A DNA stretch of 64,000 nt. Origin: a virus. The number at the start of each line of letters is the position of its first letter. Positions within the stretch are counted from its first letter, which is position 1. The notes under the pieces are model-generated. The model did not search any database. It had not been told where the DNA came from and worked only from the letters and a program-made list of their open reading frames with translations. The stretch lies in the IMG/VR virus record IMGVR_UViG_3300046542_000074, positions 37,376 to 101,375 of that record. One strand, written 5' to 3'. This document shows, piece by piece, positions 38,856 to 56,156 of this stretch. Position numbers and translations under genes: made by a program.

Positions 38856-38893
38856 AAAGGAGCCTTGCGCTCCTTTTTGTTTTTGTGTAGAAT
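38856..38893 (+). promoter_or_regulatory. Overlapping terminator and promoter before DNA polymerase
   Basis: AAAGGAGC-cttgc-GCTCCTTT plus T tract; TTGCGC-17-TAGAAT. Confidence 0.6.
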
Positions 38894-38921
38894 CAACGGG
38901 TTAATTCAATAGGAGAGAATT

Positions 38922-40538
38922 TTGAAGGCCATTACAAACTGGAGAAACGCAACAGTATTTGACGCGGAGTCTGATGGATTCCTTGATGTTGCAACTAAGC
39001 TACATGTACTGTCGTATCAAATGCAAATGAAGGGTGTGTCAAGCTTTAATGCTGCACTACAAACAGAGCGTATCAAGGCTTTGTTCATCTGGCATATGGA
39101 TAATAAAGTACCTGTCGTCGCACACAATGGTATTTGTTTCGACATTCCACTGATCGAGAAACTTCTTGGACTCGACCTGACAAACTTGATGGTGATCGAT
39201 ACCCTTGCTATTAGTTGGTATTTGAATCCCGAGAGGAACTTGCATGGTCTGGATTCCTTTCACGAGGATTACGGTATTGCGAAACCAAAGGTACAAGATT
39301 GGGATAACCAACCGTATGAAGTTTACGAGAACCGTTGCCAAGAAGACGTTAAGATCAACAAAGCACTTTGGGAAGACCTGAAGTCTCGGTTGATTGACAT
39401 GTACTCACGCGCCAAAGTTGAGATTGATCTTGGTAAAGTGGGTGGCAAGCGTATGTTCCCAACTGAGGTCATTTACATTGACCAGTACAAGGGGAGTACT
39501 GTAGACGAAGCAATTGATCGTATCCTGACATTCCTGATGTTCAAGATGGATTGTGCCCGTCTGCAAGAGCGTACTCAGTGGGAAGCGGACGTTGTTTCAT
39601 TGACTGCTTCACAAGAAAAGCTGAGTAAGATCGTACTTGAGGCAAAGGCTAAGCTTGAGTCTGTAATGCCTAAAGTACCTAAGTACACGTTGAAAAAGAA
39701 GCCAGCAGACCCATATAAGATGAGTGGTGACTTGTCTGTTCATGGTGAGAAGTGGTTTAAGGTATTGGCTCAGTTCGAAGCTAAAGAGGTTGATGACCTC
39801 GGCAACTTGATGGTTAAAGAGTCCAACAAACCAAACGAACTTAAGACCTTGAAAGAGTATGAACCACCTTCTGCATCGTCACCTTTGCAGATTAAGTCTT
39901 TCTTGTTCTCCAAGGGTTGGGTGCCGTTAACTTTCAAGTATGAGAAAGATGAGGAACTGTTTGCAGCATGGGTTGCCAGTAAACCAAAGGAAGGCGCTCA
40001 ACGGGGATCTTGGACTGCTTGGAAAGCTAAGAAGCCACCAGAGCGAGAGATTCCACAAGTAACTAAAGCAGGCGAAGACGGAAAAGAGTTGTGCCAATCT
40101 GTCTTGGACTTGGCCGAAGAAATTCCAGAGATTATGTTGTATGCCGATTACAACGTAGCGAAACACCGTCTTGGTGTAGTGGATGGATTCCTTCGTGACT
40201 TGCGGGATGGTAAGTGGTTGCAAGCTCGTATTGGTGGTTTCACTAACACATTGCGAGTACAACATCGGGAACTTGTGAACTTGCCGGGAGTTGATAAAGC
40301 TCACGGGGAAGACATTCGTGGGGGTTTGATTGCTGGATTCAAGAAAATTCTTCTTGGTTCTGACATGTCAAGTCTTGAGGATAGGATTAAAATTAACTTC
40401 ATGATGACACACGACCAAGTTTATGTGGAACAGCTTAGTGAGAAGGGGTACGACCCACACCTAGCAATGGCTGTGGTTGCTGGCATGATTACAGAAGACG
40501 AGAAGGAGTTCTACAAATGGTACAAAGCGAACCACTAA
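38922..40538 (+). CDS. DNA polymerase family A, N-terminal fragment (3'-5' exonuclease, thumb, motif A)
   Basis: Exo motifs FDAESDG, AHNG..FD, C..DV; TNTLR, NLP, motif A SDMSSLEDR, DPH. Confidence 0.92.
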   Translation: MKAITNWRNATVFDAESDGFLDVATKLHVLSYQMQMKGVSSFNAALQTERIKALFIWHMDNKVPVVAHNGICFDIPLIEKLLGLDLTNLMVIDTLAISWYLNPERNLHGLDSFHEDYGIAKPKVQDWDNQPYEVYENRCQEDVKINKALWEDLKSRLIDMYSRAKVEIDLGKVGGKRMFPTEVIYIDQYKGSTVDEAIDRILTFLMFKMDCARLQERTQWEADVVSLTASQEKLSKIVLEAKAKLESVMPKVPKYTLKKKPADPYKMSGDLSVHGEKWFKVLAQFEAKEVDDLGNLMVKESNKPNELKTLKEYEPPSASSPLQIKSFLFSKGWVPLTFKYEKDEELFAAWVASKPKEGAQRGSWTAWKAKKPPEREIPQVTKAGEDGKELCQSVLDLAEEIPEIMLYADYNVAKHRLGVVDGFLRDLRDGKWLQARIGGFTNTLRVQHRELVNLPGVDKAHGEDIRGGLIAGFKKILLGSDMSSLEDRIKINFMMTHDQVYVEQLSEKGYDPHLAMAVVAGMITEDEKEFYKWYKANH

Positions 40539-41083
40539 CGTTGTATGGGTTCACAAAAGAAGAGTTCCTTGGTTTCACCTATGTGGATGTAACTTCGCCG
40601 TCGGGTTTGAGGTGGGCGAAGGGCGCCAGTTCAACGGCAACAAAGGGAAGTGTTTTCGGCACATACTCCCGTGCTGTAAAGCACCCATGTTGGCGAGTGA
40701 AGTACAATGGAGTTCCCATGGTGGTGGCAAGGGTGTTGTATTTTCTGACAAAAGGAATCCCACCAGTTGGTTTTGTAGATCACAGGAATGGGGATACTTA
40801 TGACCATAACCACGATAACTTAAGGGATGTCGTGATTAAGGTTAACTGCGAGAACAGGGTTGTGCTAAATGAAACAGGCGTACCCGGTGTTTATTTTTCT
40901 GATGGAAGGTGTCCGTCTTGGAGATGCCAAGGTGTTTCTGCTGATGGCGTTAGGTGGGTGAAAAGTTACTCAGTAAATAAATACGGCTATGAAAATGCCT
41001 TGTCCCTTGCCAAAAAGCACCGTCTTGGTAAAGAGGAAGAAAACAACACACAAACTAGGAGAAAGACACTTGTTGACACTTGA
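40517..41083 (+). mobile_element. HNH homing endonuclease gene inserted into the DNA polymerase gene
   Basis: VDHRNGD...N..DNLR.V....N..N; AP2-like C-terminus; AAGGAG RBS at 40503. Confidence 0.88.
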
Positions 41084-41660
41084 CCAAATGAAAGCCCTAC
41101 CACCAGAGAAGCAAAAAGAAATCATTGCAAAAATCACGGCAGCACGTAAAAAAGGCAAGACAACCAACTACGCAAGTGTGTATAATGCAGGTGCGGCAGC
41201 GATTGCTCGGGCTGCTGGTGTTAGTTTGGAAGAGGGTAAGATTCTACACGAGGCTTACTGGAAACTGAACTGGGCAGTAAAAGCTATTGCCGAAGAACAG
41301 ATTGTCATCACAGACAAACGCGGTAATAAGTGGTTGATCAACCCGGTTAACGGCTTCCTGTATTCCTTGCGTAAAGACTCTGACCGATTCAGTACGTTGG
41401 CTCAGGGTACTGGCTCATATATGTTTGATATGTGGGTTGACGCAGTGTTGGAAGAGATGTATAGTCTGTTCAAGCGCAAGACTCTGACTGGATCTTTTCA
41501 CGATGAGCTGATTTTGTGTATTGCTGACGACGAGAAGTGGAAAAATCTTTTCAAAGAAATTGTTGAAAAGGCTATTGACACCATCAACGAACGGTATAAA
41601 CTACGACGGCTGCTGGGTTGCGATGTTCAATTTGGCTACCGTTATTCGGAAATTCACTAA
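41070..41660 (+). CDS. DNA polymerase family A, C-terminal fragment (motifs B and C)
   Basis: R..GK..NYA..Y motif B, FSTL.QG, FHDE motif C, ends EIH; AGGAG RBS 41057-61 before TTG 41070. Confidence 0.9.
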   Translation: MLTLDQMKALPPEKQKEIIAKITAARKKGKTTNYASVYNAGAAAIARAAGVSLEEGKILHEAYWKLNWAVKAIAEEQIVITDKRGNKWLINPVNGFLYSLRKDSDRFSTLAQGTGSYMFDMWVDAVLEEMYSLFKRKTLTGSFHDELILCIADDEKWKNLFKEIVEKAIDTINERYKLRRLLGCDVQFGYRYSEIH

Positions 41661-41674
41661 CTAGGAGAAACTAA

Positions 41675-42028
41675 GTGACAGCTAAAACAAACTTCGCTAT
41701 TCGCACCACCGATAAGACATTCAAGTCCAACGTTAATACACTGGAAGCTCTTGGGTATCAAATCTTCCCTGATACCAAAAAAGCAGCACAACGTGGCGAT
41801 AGAATTTCAAACCGCATGGATGGGTGGGATGCTCTTAGTCCACAGGATGGTGGGATCGCTCGTGCTAGTTTTAGTAGCAGCCACCGCTTCCTGTTCGAAA
41901 ACATTTCCGACTTCCTAGAGTGGCACTTCACACCAGAACAAACACAAGAACAACTGGAAATTGCTAAGTTGGAAGGTAAGATCAAAGTTATGCAAGATCG
42001 TATTGCGTGCTTGAAGGAAGTTTCGTAA
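41675..42028 (+). CDS. Hypothetical protein with coiled-coil tail
   Basis: AGGAG RBS, GTG start. Confidence 0.7.
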   Translation: MTAKTNFAIRTTDKTFKSNVNTLEALGYQIFPDTKKAAQRGDRISNRMDGWDALSPQDGGIARASFSSSHRFLFENISDFLEWHFTPEQTQEQLEIAKLEGKIKVMQDRIACLKEVS

Positions 42029-52892: not shown

Positions 52893-53915
52893 TTGAGTAA
52901 GCCAGAAAAGAAGTACCTCAGTCAGATTGAAACACCAACCGATTCATATGTAACACACTACCCTTGGGCAACTGAGATGGCGATTCAGCAACAGTCATTG
53001 TTCTGGCCTGCCGAAGAACTGGGTGTAGATGAGGATGAACAAGACTTCCGAACTAACCTTCTTGGAGGTGAACTACACGGTATCCTGACAGCACAGTCTA
53101 TCCTGACTCAATACGAGTTGCTGATTGGTGGTGAAGAACTTTGGGGCGGTAAGATTGCTAAGCTGTTCCCTCGTCCAGAGATTCAACGGATGTGTGCGTG
53201 CTTCGCTAACGTAGAACTTGGTTCACATGCACCGTTCTATGCTTTGGGCAATGAAGTGCTGGGTAAAGCGACAGACGAGTTTTACACTCAATGGAAACAA
53301 GATCCAGTCTTGGCTGAGCGTATGAAGTTCATTAGTGAGTGTGCTGCCAGTGATGATGCTTTGGAAGTTACTGCTGCACTGGCGTTCTTGGAAGGTGCAA
53401 TTCTGTTTAGTATCTTTGGTTACTTCAAAGGTTTCAACAGCCGTGGTTACAACCTGATTTCCCACTTTGTCAGTGGTATCGATGGCAGTACAAAAGATGA
53501 GAACTTTCACAGCATCGCCTCGGCTAACTTGTTCCGTCAATGTAAGTCTGAGCGTACAGAGTTGGGCAATCACAGTGCTCGTCGTGAGAACGCACTGAAT
53601 AAGAAAATCGATAAGATTGCTTTGGACGTGTACAACCACGAACTGCTGATCATTGACAAGATGTTTGAAGTTGGTACTAACCGAGTGGTTAAGAAGCAAG
53701 AGTGCATTGAGTTCCTGCAAGATCGTTTGAACGTAGTGTTGAATCGCCTTGGTCGTCCTCCTATGTTTGAACGTGTACAAGGTGTGATTAGTAAGTGGTT
53801 CTACCAGCAACTGAGTACAGTAAAGATTCCTGACTTCTTTGCAGCAACACAACTCCAGTACACACGTAATTGGAAGAAATATAAACTAGGTTTTAAACGA
53901 GATTTGGTACAGTGA
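52893..53915 (+). CDS. nrdB: Class I ribonucleotide reductase small subunit
   Basis: FW..EE, E..SH...Y, EG.ILFS.F, DE..H, PDFF C-terminus. Confidence 0.93.
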   Translation: MSKPEKKYLSQIETPTDSYVTHYPWATEMAIQQQSLFWPAEELGVDEDEQDFRTNLLGGELHGILTAQSILTQYELLIGGEELWGGKIAKLFPRPEIQRMCACFANVELGSHAPFYALGNEVLGKATDEFYTQWKQDPVLAERMKFISECAASDDALEVTAALAFLEGAILFSIFGYFKGFNSRGYNLISHFVSGIDGSTKDENFHSIASANLFRQCKSERTELGNHSARRENALNKKIDKIALDVYNHELLIIDKMFEVGTNRVVKKQECIEFLQDRLNVVLNRLGRPPMFERVQGVISKWFYQQLSTVKIPDFFAATQLQYTRNWKKYKLGFKRDLVQ

Positions 53916-54436
53916 TTCACCCTCTTAAATCTGAAATCATGGAAAGGTTTGAGTATGTAGACGGTAAAATCCTCGTAAAGAAAGCCGGACAATGGAAAGG
54001 TAAAGTTGGTGAGGAAGCTGGTAGTGTGAGGGGTGATGGTCGTAGAATAATTCAAATAAAAGGTGTTAGGTTATTCACGCACCAAGTTGTTTGGTTGATG
54101 TTCAATGATGACTTGCCAGATGAAACGATTGACCATAAGAATGTTGATTGCTCTGCTAATGAAATCGAGAATCTACGACCAGCTACAACCACGGAACAGC
54201 AAGGCAACAAGAAGGTTCAGAGTAACAACACCACCGGGTACAAAGGTGTAAGTTATTCTGACACCAGAAACAAAACTAAACCTTGGCGAGCCTCCATAAC
54301 AGATCAAGGTAAAGCTGTACACCTTGGGTACTTCGCAACAGCAGAGACTGCTGCTAAAGCATACGACATTGCTGCGTTAGAAAAGTTTGGGAATTTTGCA
54401 CTATTGAATTTTAAGGAGTATATTGATGTTGTTTGA
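53912..54436 (+). mobile_element. HNH-AP2 homing endonuclease between nrdB and nrdA
   Basis: IDHKN....N.IENLR.AT; SNNTTGYKGVS..HLGYF.TAE.AA.AYD.AA...FG.FA.LNF. Confidence 0.9.
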
Positions 54437-56156
54437 AGATATTATGGGTGAAGATATTGAGGAACTGCAACGTTTAGAGCAGTTGAGTAAGGAACGGAAA
54501 GAGTTGCAAGAAAAAGGGTATCTACCGTCGTGGTATACGACTCAGGGATATCAAATGTTCAAAGAAAAGTATCAGTACGACGGTGAAGAGGCTGTACTTG
54601 GTCGTCATACCAAGATCGCTCAGACTCTCGCCAAACACATGAAAGGTCGTGAACAAGAGTGGGAAGAGAAGTTCTTCCATGAACTGTGGGATGGTGTGCT
54701 GTCTCCTAGTTCCCCGGCGCTGGCTAACACTGGTACTGACCGTGGGATGATGGTTGCTTGTTCTGGTCAAGTGGTAGGGGATAGTGTAGAAGAGTTCTAC
54801 GACGGCATGAAAGAAACTGCACTGCTGTCTAAACAAGGTTTCGGTACTAGTGCAAACTTCAGTCACATCCGACCTCGTGGAAGCAAGATTTCTAAAGGTG
54901 GTAAGGCCAACGGTGCGGTACAGGTAATCAACCGTTACTTTGAGACTGTGTCTGATATCAGTCAAGGTGGTAAACGTCGTGGTTCGATTGGTGCTTACTT
55001 GGATATTGAACACGGAGACTGGGATGAAGCCTGTGACTCTCTGGCTCACGACCACAACGGTAAGAACTATGGTTGGATCGTTAAAGATACTTTCATTGAG
55101 AAGTTGAAGAACGATGATCCAGAAGCTAACCGACGTTGGATTAAGGCTGTATACACCAAGCTGATTACTGGCAAGGGTTACATCTTTAAAGTGGACTGTG
55201 CCAACCGTCATCGTCCAAAGATGTACAAAGACTGGAACTTGTTCATTGAAGCTTCCAACCTGTGTACTGAGATTATGCTACATAGTTCGGAAATGTTGAC
55301 TTACTCGTGTATTCTGGCTTCGTTGAACTTGGTACATTGGGATGCCATCCCTGAGCGGGAATCGGTGTTCATTGGTACTGTGTTCCTTGATTGTCTGTGT
55401 TCTGAGTTTATTGAGAAGTCTGCTGGTATTGCCGGACTGGAGAAGGTAAGAGAATTCACCATTAAAGGTCGTGCGATTGGTTTGGGTATTATGGGTTTCC
55501 ATACTTACTTGCAATCGAAAGGTATTCCTTACATTGGTTTGGAAGCTCAGTTCCTGTCTAACCAGATTGCCAAGCATATGCACGATGAATCGTTGCGTGC
55601 AAGTCAATGGTTGGCTCAAGAGTATGGTGAACCTGAGTGGTGTGCTGGTTATGGTGTTCGTAATACACACCGTACAGCGTATGCCCCAACTAAGACAACT
55701 AGCCTGCTAATGGGCGGTGTATCGGAGTCGTGGTTCCCTGATCCGGGTATGATCTTTGATGCTGGTAGTGCAGTTGGTGAGCTTCGTCGTATCCCGCCAA
55801 TCTTTTATAAGTTGATGAAAGATAAGGGTGTTTACAACGAAGAAACTATTCAAGACATTATCAACAACCTTGGTTCGGTGCAACACGTTGACTGGATGAC
55901 AGATGCTGAGAAACTTGTATTCCTTCATGCATATGAAATGGATCAAATGATTCTGCTTCGCCATGCGAGTCAGCGACAACGGCATACATGTCAAGGTCAA
56001 AGCTTGAACTTCTATGTACCAGAGGATGGTAGCGAGGATTTGATTGCGATCCTGTTGACAAAGCTATTGTTGGACGACAATGTAATCAGTCAATACTACA
56101 TCTACTCTCGCTCGGGTGTGGTGATTAAGGATGAATGTGTAGCATGTAGCGCGTAA
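54423..56156 (+). CDS. nrdA: Class I ribonucleotide reductase large subunit (short, no ATP cone)
   Basis: SNLCTEI, SCIL.SLNL, RAIGLG, APT, QGQSLN; C-terminal CVACS. Confidence 0.95.
   Translation: MMLFEDIMGEDIEELQRLEQLSKERKELQEKGYLPSWYTTQGYQMFKEKYQYDGEEAVLGRHTKIAQTLAKHMKGREQEWEEKFFHELWDGVLSPSSPALANTGTDRGMMVACSGQVVGDSVEEFYDGMKETALLSKQGFGTSANFSHIRPRGSKISKGGKANGAVQVINRYFETVSDISQGGKRRGSIGAYLDIEHGDWDEACDSLAHDHNGKNYGWIVKDTFIEKLKNDDPEANRRWIKAVYTKLITGKGYIFKVDCANRHRPKMYKDWNLFIEASNLCTEIMLHSSEMLTYSCILASLNLVHWDAIPERESVFIGTVFLDCLCSEFIEKSAGIAGLEKVREFTIKGRAIGLGIMGFHTYLQSKGIPYIGLEAQFLSNQIAKHMHDESLRASQWLAQEYGEPEWCAGYGVRNTHRTAYAPTKTTSLLMGGVSESWFPDPGMIFDAGSAVGELRRIPPIFYKLMKDKGVYNEETIQDIINNLGSVQHVDWMTDAEKLVFLHAYEMDQMILLRHASQRQRHTCQGQSLNFYVPEDGSEDLIAILLTKLLLDDNVISQYYIYSRSGVVIKDECVACSA

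Follow-up and report, generated by a model that had tools for sequence, protein, structure and literature searches.

A phage family-A DNA polymerase gene split before the O helix by an endonuclease gene and probably translated as two chains

In the DNA analysed here, a 64,000-nucleotide (nt) stretch of a viral genome (positions 37,376 to 101,375 of the IMG/VR record IMGVR_UViG_3300046542_000074, referred to as the window), the gene for a family-A DNA polymerase (PolA) is divided between its motifs A and B by a free-standing gene for a putative HNH-AP2 endonuclease. We conclude, with a probability that we put at about 85%, that this phage makes its sole replicative family-A DNA polymerase as two separately translated polypeptides, PolA-N and PolA-C. 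The conclusion draws on the comparison of sequences: the same split and the same end peptides are conserved in relatives, the catalytic residues are kept, and PolA is the only polymerase recognised in the genome. A preliminary description, made from the letters of the window alone, had favoured a two-subunit PolA with a composite active site, and the comparisons agree with it.

The anatomy of the junction, its conservation, its patchy distribution over the polymerase tree and the existence of split forms free of an endonuclease are direct observations. Beyond the preliminary description, the halves turn out to carry extra conserved tails, and the junction to be a recurrent, horizontally distributed cassette.

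The split polymerase locus

All features of the locus lie on the plus strand (positions are those of the window; aa, amino acids):

38922..40538, plus strand: PolA-N, 538 aa, with 3'-5' exonuclease, thumb, palm motif A and the first finger helices; it starts at TTG 38922, with GGAGA 5' of it, and ends in WYKANH and TAA 40536-38
40350..40385, plus strand: motif A strand, LLGSDMSSLEDR, N residues 477-488
40503..40508, plus strand: Shine-Dalgarno sequence of the endonuclease, AAGGAG, within PolA-N codons and 8 nt 5' of ATG 40517
40509..40535, plus strand: C-terminal tail of PolA-N, FYKWYKANH; the same codons hold the endonuclease start (AAATGGTA)
40517..41083, plus strand: free-standing gene for a putative HNH-AP2 homing endonuclease, 188 aa, stop TGA 41081-83
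41057..41061, plus strand: Shine-Dalgarno sequence of PolA-C, AGGAG, within the endonuclease reading frame, 8 nt before TTG 41070 and 11 before TTG 41073
41070..41660, plus strand: PolA-C, 196 aa from TTG 41070, with the rest of the fingers and motifs B and C
41070..41138, plus strand: N-terminal head of PolA-C, LLTLDQMKALPPEKQKEIIAKIT, including the invariant Met at ATG 41088
41145-41183, plus strand: motif B (O helix) of PolA-C, RKKGKTTNYASVY
41499-41507, plus strand: palm motif C (HDE) of PolA-C

Both halves are recognisable as parts of a phage PolA. PolA-N matches the DNA polymerase profile PHROG 17 (E 4e-54) and is 52-54% identical, over 98-100% of its length, to the uninterrupted PolA of Otagovirus, Vibrio and Shewanella phages; PolA-C matches the same profile (E 1e-30), is ~60-68% identical to the same uninterrupted genes, and by itself reaches 34.0 bits against Pfam DNA_pol_A (cut-off 34.3). 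The polymerase is matched best by Pseudomonas phages (Otagovirus) and by Vibrio and Shewanella phages of ~135 kb, and a megablast search with the locus revealed no cultured phage as a close relative. Motifs A, B and C of family A are all present, but on two chains, the first of which ends at TAA 40536 and the second of which has a separate start at 41070 or 41073. D481 and E486 of motif A (D..SxxE) are invariant in the alignment for the N half (A4), as are R26, K30, Y34 and Y38 of motif B (R...K...(F/Y)...Y) and H144, D145 and E146 of motif C in that for the C half (A2). Positions 18-198 of the A2 profile align to residues 507-703 of T7 gp5, which places the break just before the O helix; the head of PolA-C has no counterpart in T7 gp5.

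The genome record is complete (101,375 bp, with direct repeats at its ends) and has one PolA locus and no match to PolB or DnaE. A primase-helicase gene stands directly upstream of PolA-N, an order shared with relatives; within window positions 38856-38924, a terminator-like hairpin (8 bp, then a T run) comes between it and the TTG start of PolA-N.

A base-by-base recheck confirmed every coordinate in the preliminary description, and the break does fall, as it had said, between motif A (N 477-488) and motif B (C residues 26-38). The endonuclease open reading frame (ORF) also spans the insert and runs into both halves as described, overlapping PolA-N by 22 nt and PolA-C by 14 nt, and it is out of frame with both. 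PolA-N and PolA-C are in the same phase, separated by a stretch of 534 nt (40536-41069), and a CAC codon stands at 40533-35, before TAA 40536-38, and again at 41067-69, before TTG 41070.

PolA-C has three candidate starts: TTG 41070 and TTG 41073, both served by the AGGAG, and ATG 41088, the invariant Met, which lies 4 nt past the endonuclease stop and was picked by the gene caller. In relatives the C half starts either five codons upstream of an L-T-L sequence (MSKQG..) or at that Leu (MTLEEMK). The position of the upstream ATG reads GGA in the window and so forms part of the AGGAG, for which reason translation likely starts at TTG 41070 or TTG 41073; PolA-C could also arise from ATG 41088 by reinitiation. 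RNA around the AGGAG is less structured than shuffled sequences (z +1.9). TTG starts may be used by both polymerase halves.

Relatives split at the same junction

A protein search with PolA-C, restricted by length, matched 120 short proteins, 65 of which (clusters, 144-204 aa) begin with the head (M)TLEEMKxLPxxxQK, with ~8 more called from an inner Met; several of these stand-alone C fragments lie on contigs of 50-92 kb. Among 168 fetched loci, 146 are uninterrupted and 13 distinct ones, all metagenomic and from IMG/VR or JGI, are split exactly at the junction of the window: L031-34, L045, L048, L049, L052 (the same contig as L135), L089, L115, L116, L119 and L136. Their polymerases are 33-70% identical to that of the window, and the gap between the halves is filled in different ways:

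Window, L032-34 and L089: HNH_3/AP2 endonuclease
L052 and L136: HNH_3 endonuclease of a second subtype
L031 and L048 (by Pfam) and L045 (same signature by eye): Endonuclease_7-type endonuclease
L116, 548-1204: Mom-family gene, 218 aa (Pfam PF25680, E 1e-27)
L049: endonuclease remnant of 47 aa
L115: endonuclease remnant of 51 aa
L119, 3965-4010: only 14 nt, from the N stop to the C ATG

The split persists after decay of the endonuclease, as the remnants in L049 and L115 and the 14 nt in L119 attest, which is hard to square with an intron, an intein or a dead gene. The Mom-family gene of L116 stands in place of an endonuclease and begins at the same ATG within the tail codons. In L119 the K-W codons hold a GTG in the frame that starts the endonuclease elsewhere, and this frame continues into that of PolA-C; the C half of this locus may have taken over the initiation region of the endonuclease. 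A tblastn search for cultured phages with this junction, with a 60-aa query of head plus motif B from L031, identified none; its single match is a contiguous Vibrio phage gene, aligned from residue 10.

Other insertions were seen in the fetched polymerases. L002 (4052-4516), L027/L107 and L030/L105 (~1.07-1.09 kb) have in-frame inserts in motif B, ~20 codons downstream of the split junction, that follow TNYA and have Cys as their first residue. By appearance these are inteins, a mini-intein in Vibrio phage vB_CoeS_P1 and full-sized ones in the rest. Vibrio phage 496E54-1 (L003, 2870-3085) has ~70 additional in-frame residues inserted in the exonuclease domain of its PolA, which are missing from the other homologues.

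Conserved peptides at the ends of the halves

Split N halves end in ..ITxEExxFYxW(Y/F) plus 3-5 residues, and split C halves begin with TLxxMKxLP. The tail FYxW(Y/F) is found in all 14 split loci (the window and the 13 others), and the head TLxxMKxLPxxxQK in all split loci and in the 65 C-fragment clusters; both are missing from the contiguous forms shown, some long-linker contiguous polymerases having a similar LPxEKQ stretch. In the window the junction peptides are the tail FYKWYKANH and the head (L)LTLDQMKALPPEKQK, and the WYKANH of PolA-N is an extension relative to the uninterrupted homologues, whose linker is ~16-20 residues shorter than that of the joined split halves.

The tail motif is kept irrespective of the endonuclease start, which lies in the K-W codons (AAATGGTA) in most loci, before them in L048/L049 and after them in L045; the head is likewise kept over unrelated endonuclease C-termini. 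Because both are retained whatever endonuclease start or C-terminus overlaps them, tail and head are constrained as polymerase protein. Between polymerase clades the 21 nucleotides of the tail are on average 73% identical (up to 95%), whereas the 111 nt just upstream are 57% identical. By analogy with the tails of the split NrdA of phage Aeh1, tail and head most likely help to dock the two halves.

The head was also considered as a duplicate of the helix before the break. A five-sequence alignment places tail and head over the same segment of the homologue, and the matches of PolA-N and PolA-C overlap on ~11 positions of the PHROG 17 profile; in a larger alignment tail and head behave as an insertion, which leaves duplication as no more than one possible origin of the head.

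These comparisons bear on several other ways of reading the locus. A gene interrupted by a stop codon and a selfish gene might simply be broken, the phage replicating with host enzymes. Such a loss of function is highly improbable given that all catalytic residues are kept in the two halves, that the same split is conserved across dozens of phages, tails included, that the primase-helicase keeps its place directly upstream as in relatives, and that the complete genome has no other polymerase.

A cryptic self-splicing group I or group II intron with an HNH ORF would restore a single polymerase of ~735 aa. There is precedent for it: group I introns with HNH genes occur in PolA of SPO1-type phages, Bastille and Pf-WMP3 (PMC3428280; also cited in PMC10580990), and introns were suggested by the authors who described the split polA of Aeromonas phage MQM1 (PMC10410586) and of the OM43 phages MEP401/402 (PMC10580990). 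For the window we give this possibility very little credence. An Rfam scan of positions 39800-41900 at E up to 10 found no intron family, with chance-level snoRNA and miRNA matches only; the ORF fills the insert and leaves no space for a ribozyme core; the junction RNA is no more structured than shuffles; stop and restart are kept where 14 nt (L119) or ~100 nt (L115, L049) separate the halves; and both ends have conserved translated tails and their own ribosome-binding sites (RBS). An intein or split intein was rejected on the stop codon, the out-of-frame ORF and tails of merely ~6-9 and 14-23 residues, and a Pfam scan of the three junction proteins found no Hint or intein family. That the junction is neither intron nor intein had been inferred from the letters of the window, and the Rfam and Pfam scans bear this out.

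The matched CAC codons had also raised the idea of a ribosome that bypasses 534 nt, from CAC 40533 to CAC 41067, as in T4 gene 60 but over a distance ~10 times longer. The codons are indeed matched, with a stop after the first and AGGAG before the second, and the CACT repeat of which they are part is present; their significance did not survive comparison, as none of the 13 relatives has matched codons and in 5 of them the frame differs between the halves. The supposed gap is moreover occupied by a translated ORF of 188 codons, and a repeat of 4 nt is expected by chance, which is also a better name for it than the insertion scar that had been proposed. Deletion of the 534 nt does leave the halves in phase, as stated earlier; because the linker of uninterrupted homologues is ~16-20 residues shorter than that of the fused product, the resulting KANH-LLTLDQ join would not restore the ancestral protein. 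With neither the matched codons nor the shared frame conserved, we regard bypassing as having next to no chance of being correct.

A model of the two-chain polymerase

A prediction of the two-fragment complex, envisaged in the preliminary description, agrees with the two-chain reading. With an own alignment for each half, the modelled complex reached an ipSAE of 0.84 in three runs, as against 0.00 for the best of three controls; in a benchmark, the mark of 0.84 was reached by 58 of 80 solved complexes and by 2 of 110 mismatched pairs. At least 95% of contacts are shared between the runs, and the partner's pLDDT is 87 or more. In the model the strand of motif A (N 476-479) pairs with C 148-151, the strand after motif C, and with C 186-190, the C-terminal strand; the confident interface takes in residues 511-534 of the tail and 1-8 of the head. 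The model speaks to whether the halves can rebuild the fold, which it predicts they can, and not to binding, and its pass may mirror likeness to solved single-chain PolA structures instead of being independent evidence.

Distribution of the split over the polymerase tree

The split state needs at least six changes on a tree of 115 polymerases from which the junction columns were removed. When the nine split forms are forced into one clade on a maximum-likelihood tree of 49 rows, the log-likelihood (lnL) falls by 592 units over 583 columns, and this arrangement is rejected by the approximately unbiased test (p-AU 7e-7). The cost is ~1.0-1.1 lnL per column away from the junction; a 113-column distal segment by itself rejects one clade (p 3.8e-5, ~1.1 lnL per column). 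In the 40 and 54 columns that flank the junction one clade is not rejected (p 0.24 and 0.26) and costs ~0.25 lnL per column. The low cost near the junction is suggestive of the pattern left by co-conversion around a mobile cassette, the short segments having little power. The trees indicate that the junction allele has moved between lineages, whether by gains or losses.

The same data bear on where the split came from, as distinct from what it does. It could be that the split allele, meaning tails together with stop and restart, is a stable unit older than the present endonuclease, that genes repeatedly colonise a harmless gap, and that the present HNH gene is not the cause of the split. The very same junction is occupied by three unrelated cargo families, and in some forms by no endonuclease; between the window and L089, the split relative nearest to it, endonuclease identity is as low as 36% (59 residues); and many close C-fragment relatives are split. 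We nevertheless hold this origin to be rather unlikely: the split forms are not one clade, so the allele has moved or reverted repeatedly, an associated endonuclease explains such movement or reversion most simply, and in most loci the endonuclease start lies within the conserved tail codons.

The endonuclease in the gap

The junction endonuclease matches the HNH endonuclease profile PHROG 99 (E 5e-19). Its Pfam matches to AP2 (E 1.9e-5, 25.3 bits, cut-off 33.3) and HNH_3 (E 1.3e-3, 18.8 bits, cut-off 24.8) are under the curated cut-offs, and it retains DH and NLR motifs but has Ala where the VHR motif normally has His. Alignment to the endonucleases found at the junction in relatives gives 24-28% identity, and in most relatives the AAGGAG has a counterpart, GAGGAG or a close variant, in the same place.

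In the minimum-energy fold of the RNA, AAGGAGUUCU (40503-12) pairs with 40561-70, that is, the endonuclease Shine-Dalgarno sequence with the gene's own codons 15-18, over 10 bp including two G-U pairs. Translation of mobE is limited by a hairpin. No claim of a similar masking of the RBS is made here, as the stability of the fold is unremarkable against shuffles (z 0.84) and no counterpart was seen in L089.

A second HNH_3/AP2 endonuclease gene, weakly similar to the one in polA, lies at window positions 53912-54436 on the plus strand (174 aa), with Pfam matches above the cut-offs. It sits between the genes for the small chain (52893-53915) and the large chain (54423-56156) of ribonucleotide reductase (RNR) and overlaps both by a few bases. 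In T-even phages mobE occupies the same place between the reductase genes.

Discussion

From these observations we infer a course of events; that the halves assemble and are active, that the tails have a role, and that the endonuclease is active and homes are all conditional steps in it. One transcript would be translated separately into PolA-N (538 aa) and PolA-C (~195 aa); the halves would assemble noncovalently, with the palm sheet and the active site built from both chains, and the junction peptides of each half would help to dock its partner. The HNH-AP2 gene fills the gap, its RBS and ATG lying in the tail codons and its last codons carrying the RBS of PolA-C; tail, stop codon, endonuclease, restart signals and head would form one cassette. 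Several PolA lineages may have acquired this cassette as a copy or traded it with one another, and later swaps or losses of the endonuclease would have left the split in place.

A bolder reading, which we put forward tentatively and at somewhat less than even odds, is that the FYxWY tail and the TLEEMKxLP head together make a portable protein clasp, a part of the mobile element rather than of the polymerase. Just as tentatively, a cassette with its own stop, restart and docking peptides might carry any endonuclease or Mom gene into divergent PolA genes without killing them. If true, such elements would form a class of their own, in which the damage done by the insertion is offset by the element itself, and they would supply natural docking tags for split proteins.

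Several points weigh against the two-chain reading and the history proposed for the cassette. Evidence for a two-chain enzyme consists of comparison between sequences and of a complex model, and such a model is expected to pass for any split of a known fold. PolA-C may begin at TTG 41070, TTG 41073 or ATG 41088. The activity of the endonuclease in the window is uncertain, because its HNH_3 and AP2 matches fall below the Pfam cut-offs and the VHR His is replaced. On the polymerase tree, which is unrooted, gains are not separable from losses; mobility of the cassette is backed by the patchy distribution of the junction only. No near-identical pair of genomes with and without the cassette was found, and the ends of the element are mapped at the protein level only.

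The closest experimental parallel to the proposed two-chain PolA is the nrdA-a/mobE/nrdA-b arrangement of Aeromonas phage Aeh1, a case of 'genes in pieces' in which insertion-derived tails are essential for NrdA activity (Friedrich et al. 2007; Crona et al. 2011, PMC3045599). In both systems a free-standing HNH gene splits the gene of an essential enzyme near its active site, the halves are separately translated (at the PolA junction, by our reading), and tails are present on both. The PolA junction differs in its target, which is not RNR, in its endonuclease, which is of predicted HNH-AP2 type and not of the Mob family, and in its shorter tails; unlike those of Aeh1, the same tails recur over several polymerase lineages with interchangeable cargo, and this PolA is known from sequence.

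The closest comparative parallel is the MobA element in the topoisomerase gene 39/60 of T4, in which an overlapping HNH gene in another frame stands between a C-terminal and an N-terminal extension (Manning and Atkins 2022, bioRxiv 10.1101/2022.08.31.505936). That element has been inserted independently at one site in several clades, and the split and tails stay when the endonuclease is lost or gives way to one of another family (bioRxiv 10.1101/2022.08.31.505936). The PolA cassette has each trait of MobA except the bypass cassette: an overlapping out-of-frame ORF, conserved extensions, repeated use of one site and swap or loss of cargo, traits of genes in pieces, are found at the PolA junction. 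Unlike T4 MobA, the PolA junction has no 50-nt bypass cassette and no evidence of recoding, and the target gene and endonuclease family are different.

Among polymerases, the cultured phages MQM1 and MEP401/402 resemble the window by description, having DNA polymerase I in two ORFs with small ORFs between, one of them HNH. The group I introns of PolA and the inteins of motif B target the same conserved core of the gene; they restore a single polypeptide by splicing, whereas nothing appears to be spliced at the junction of the window.

The PolA junction is thus the counterpart, in a DNA polymerase, of the MobE/NrdA and MobA/topoisomerase cassettes, and what is added here is evidence that it is a recurrent cassette with conserved tails and interchangeable cargo. 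Split polymerase genes are often labelled introns, pseudogenes or 'part I / part II' (PMC10410586, PMC10580990); the comparative evidence suggests that those like the window's are working two-chain enzymes. That an endonuclease cassette brings its own tails was a principle with biochemistry for Aeh1 NrdA only (PMC3045599) and comparison for the T4 topoisomerase (bioRxiv 10.1101/2022.08.31.505936), and it would now extend to a replicative family-A polymerase. The natural series of junctions, with the endonuclease present, swapped, decayed or absent, offers material for asking whether short tails are enough for reassembly of a polymerase cut before its O helix, and the natural split site with its docking peptides could serve the engineering of split polymerases.

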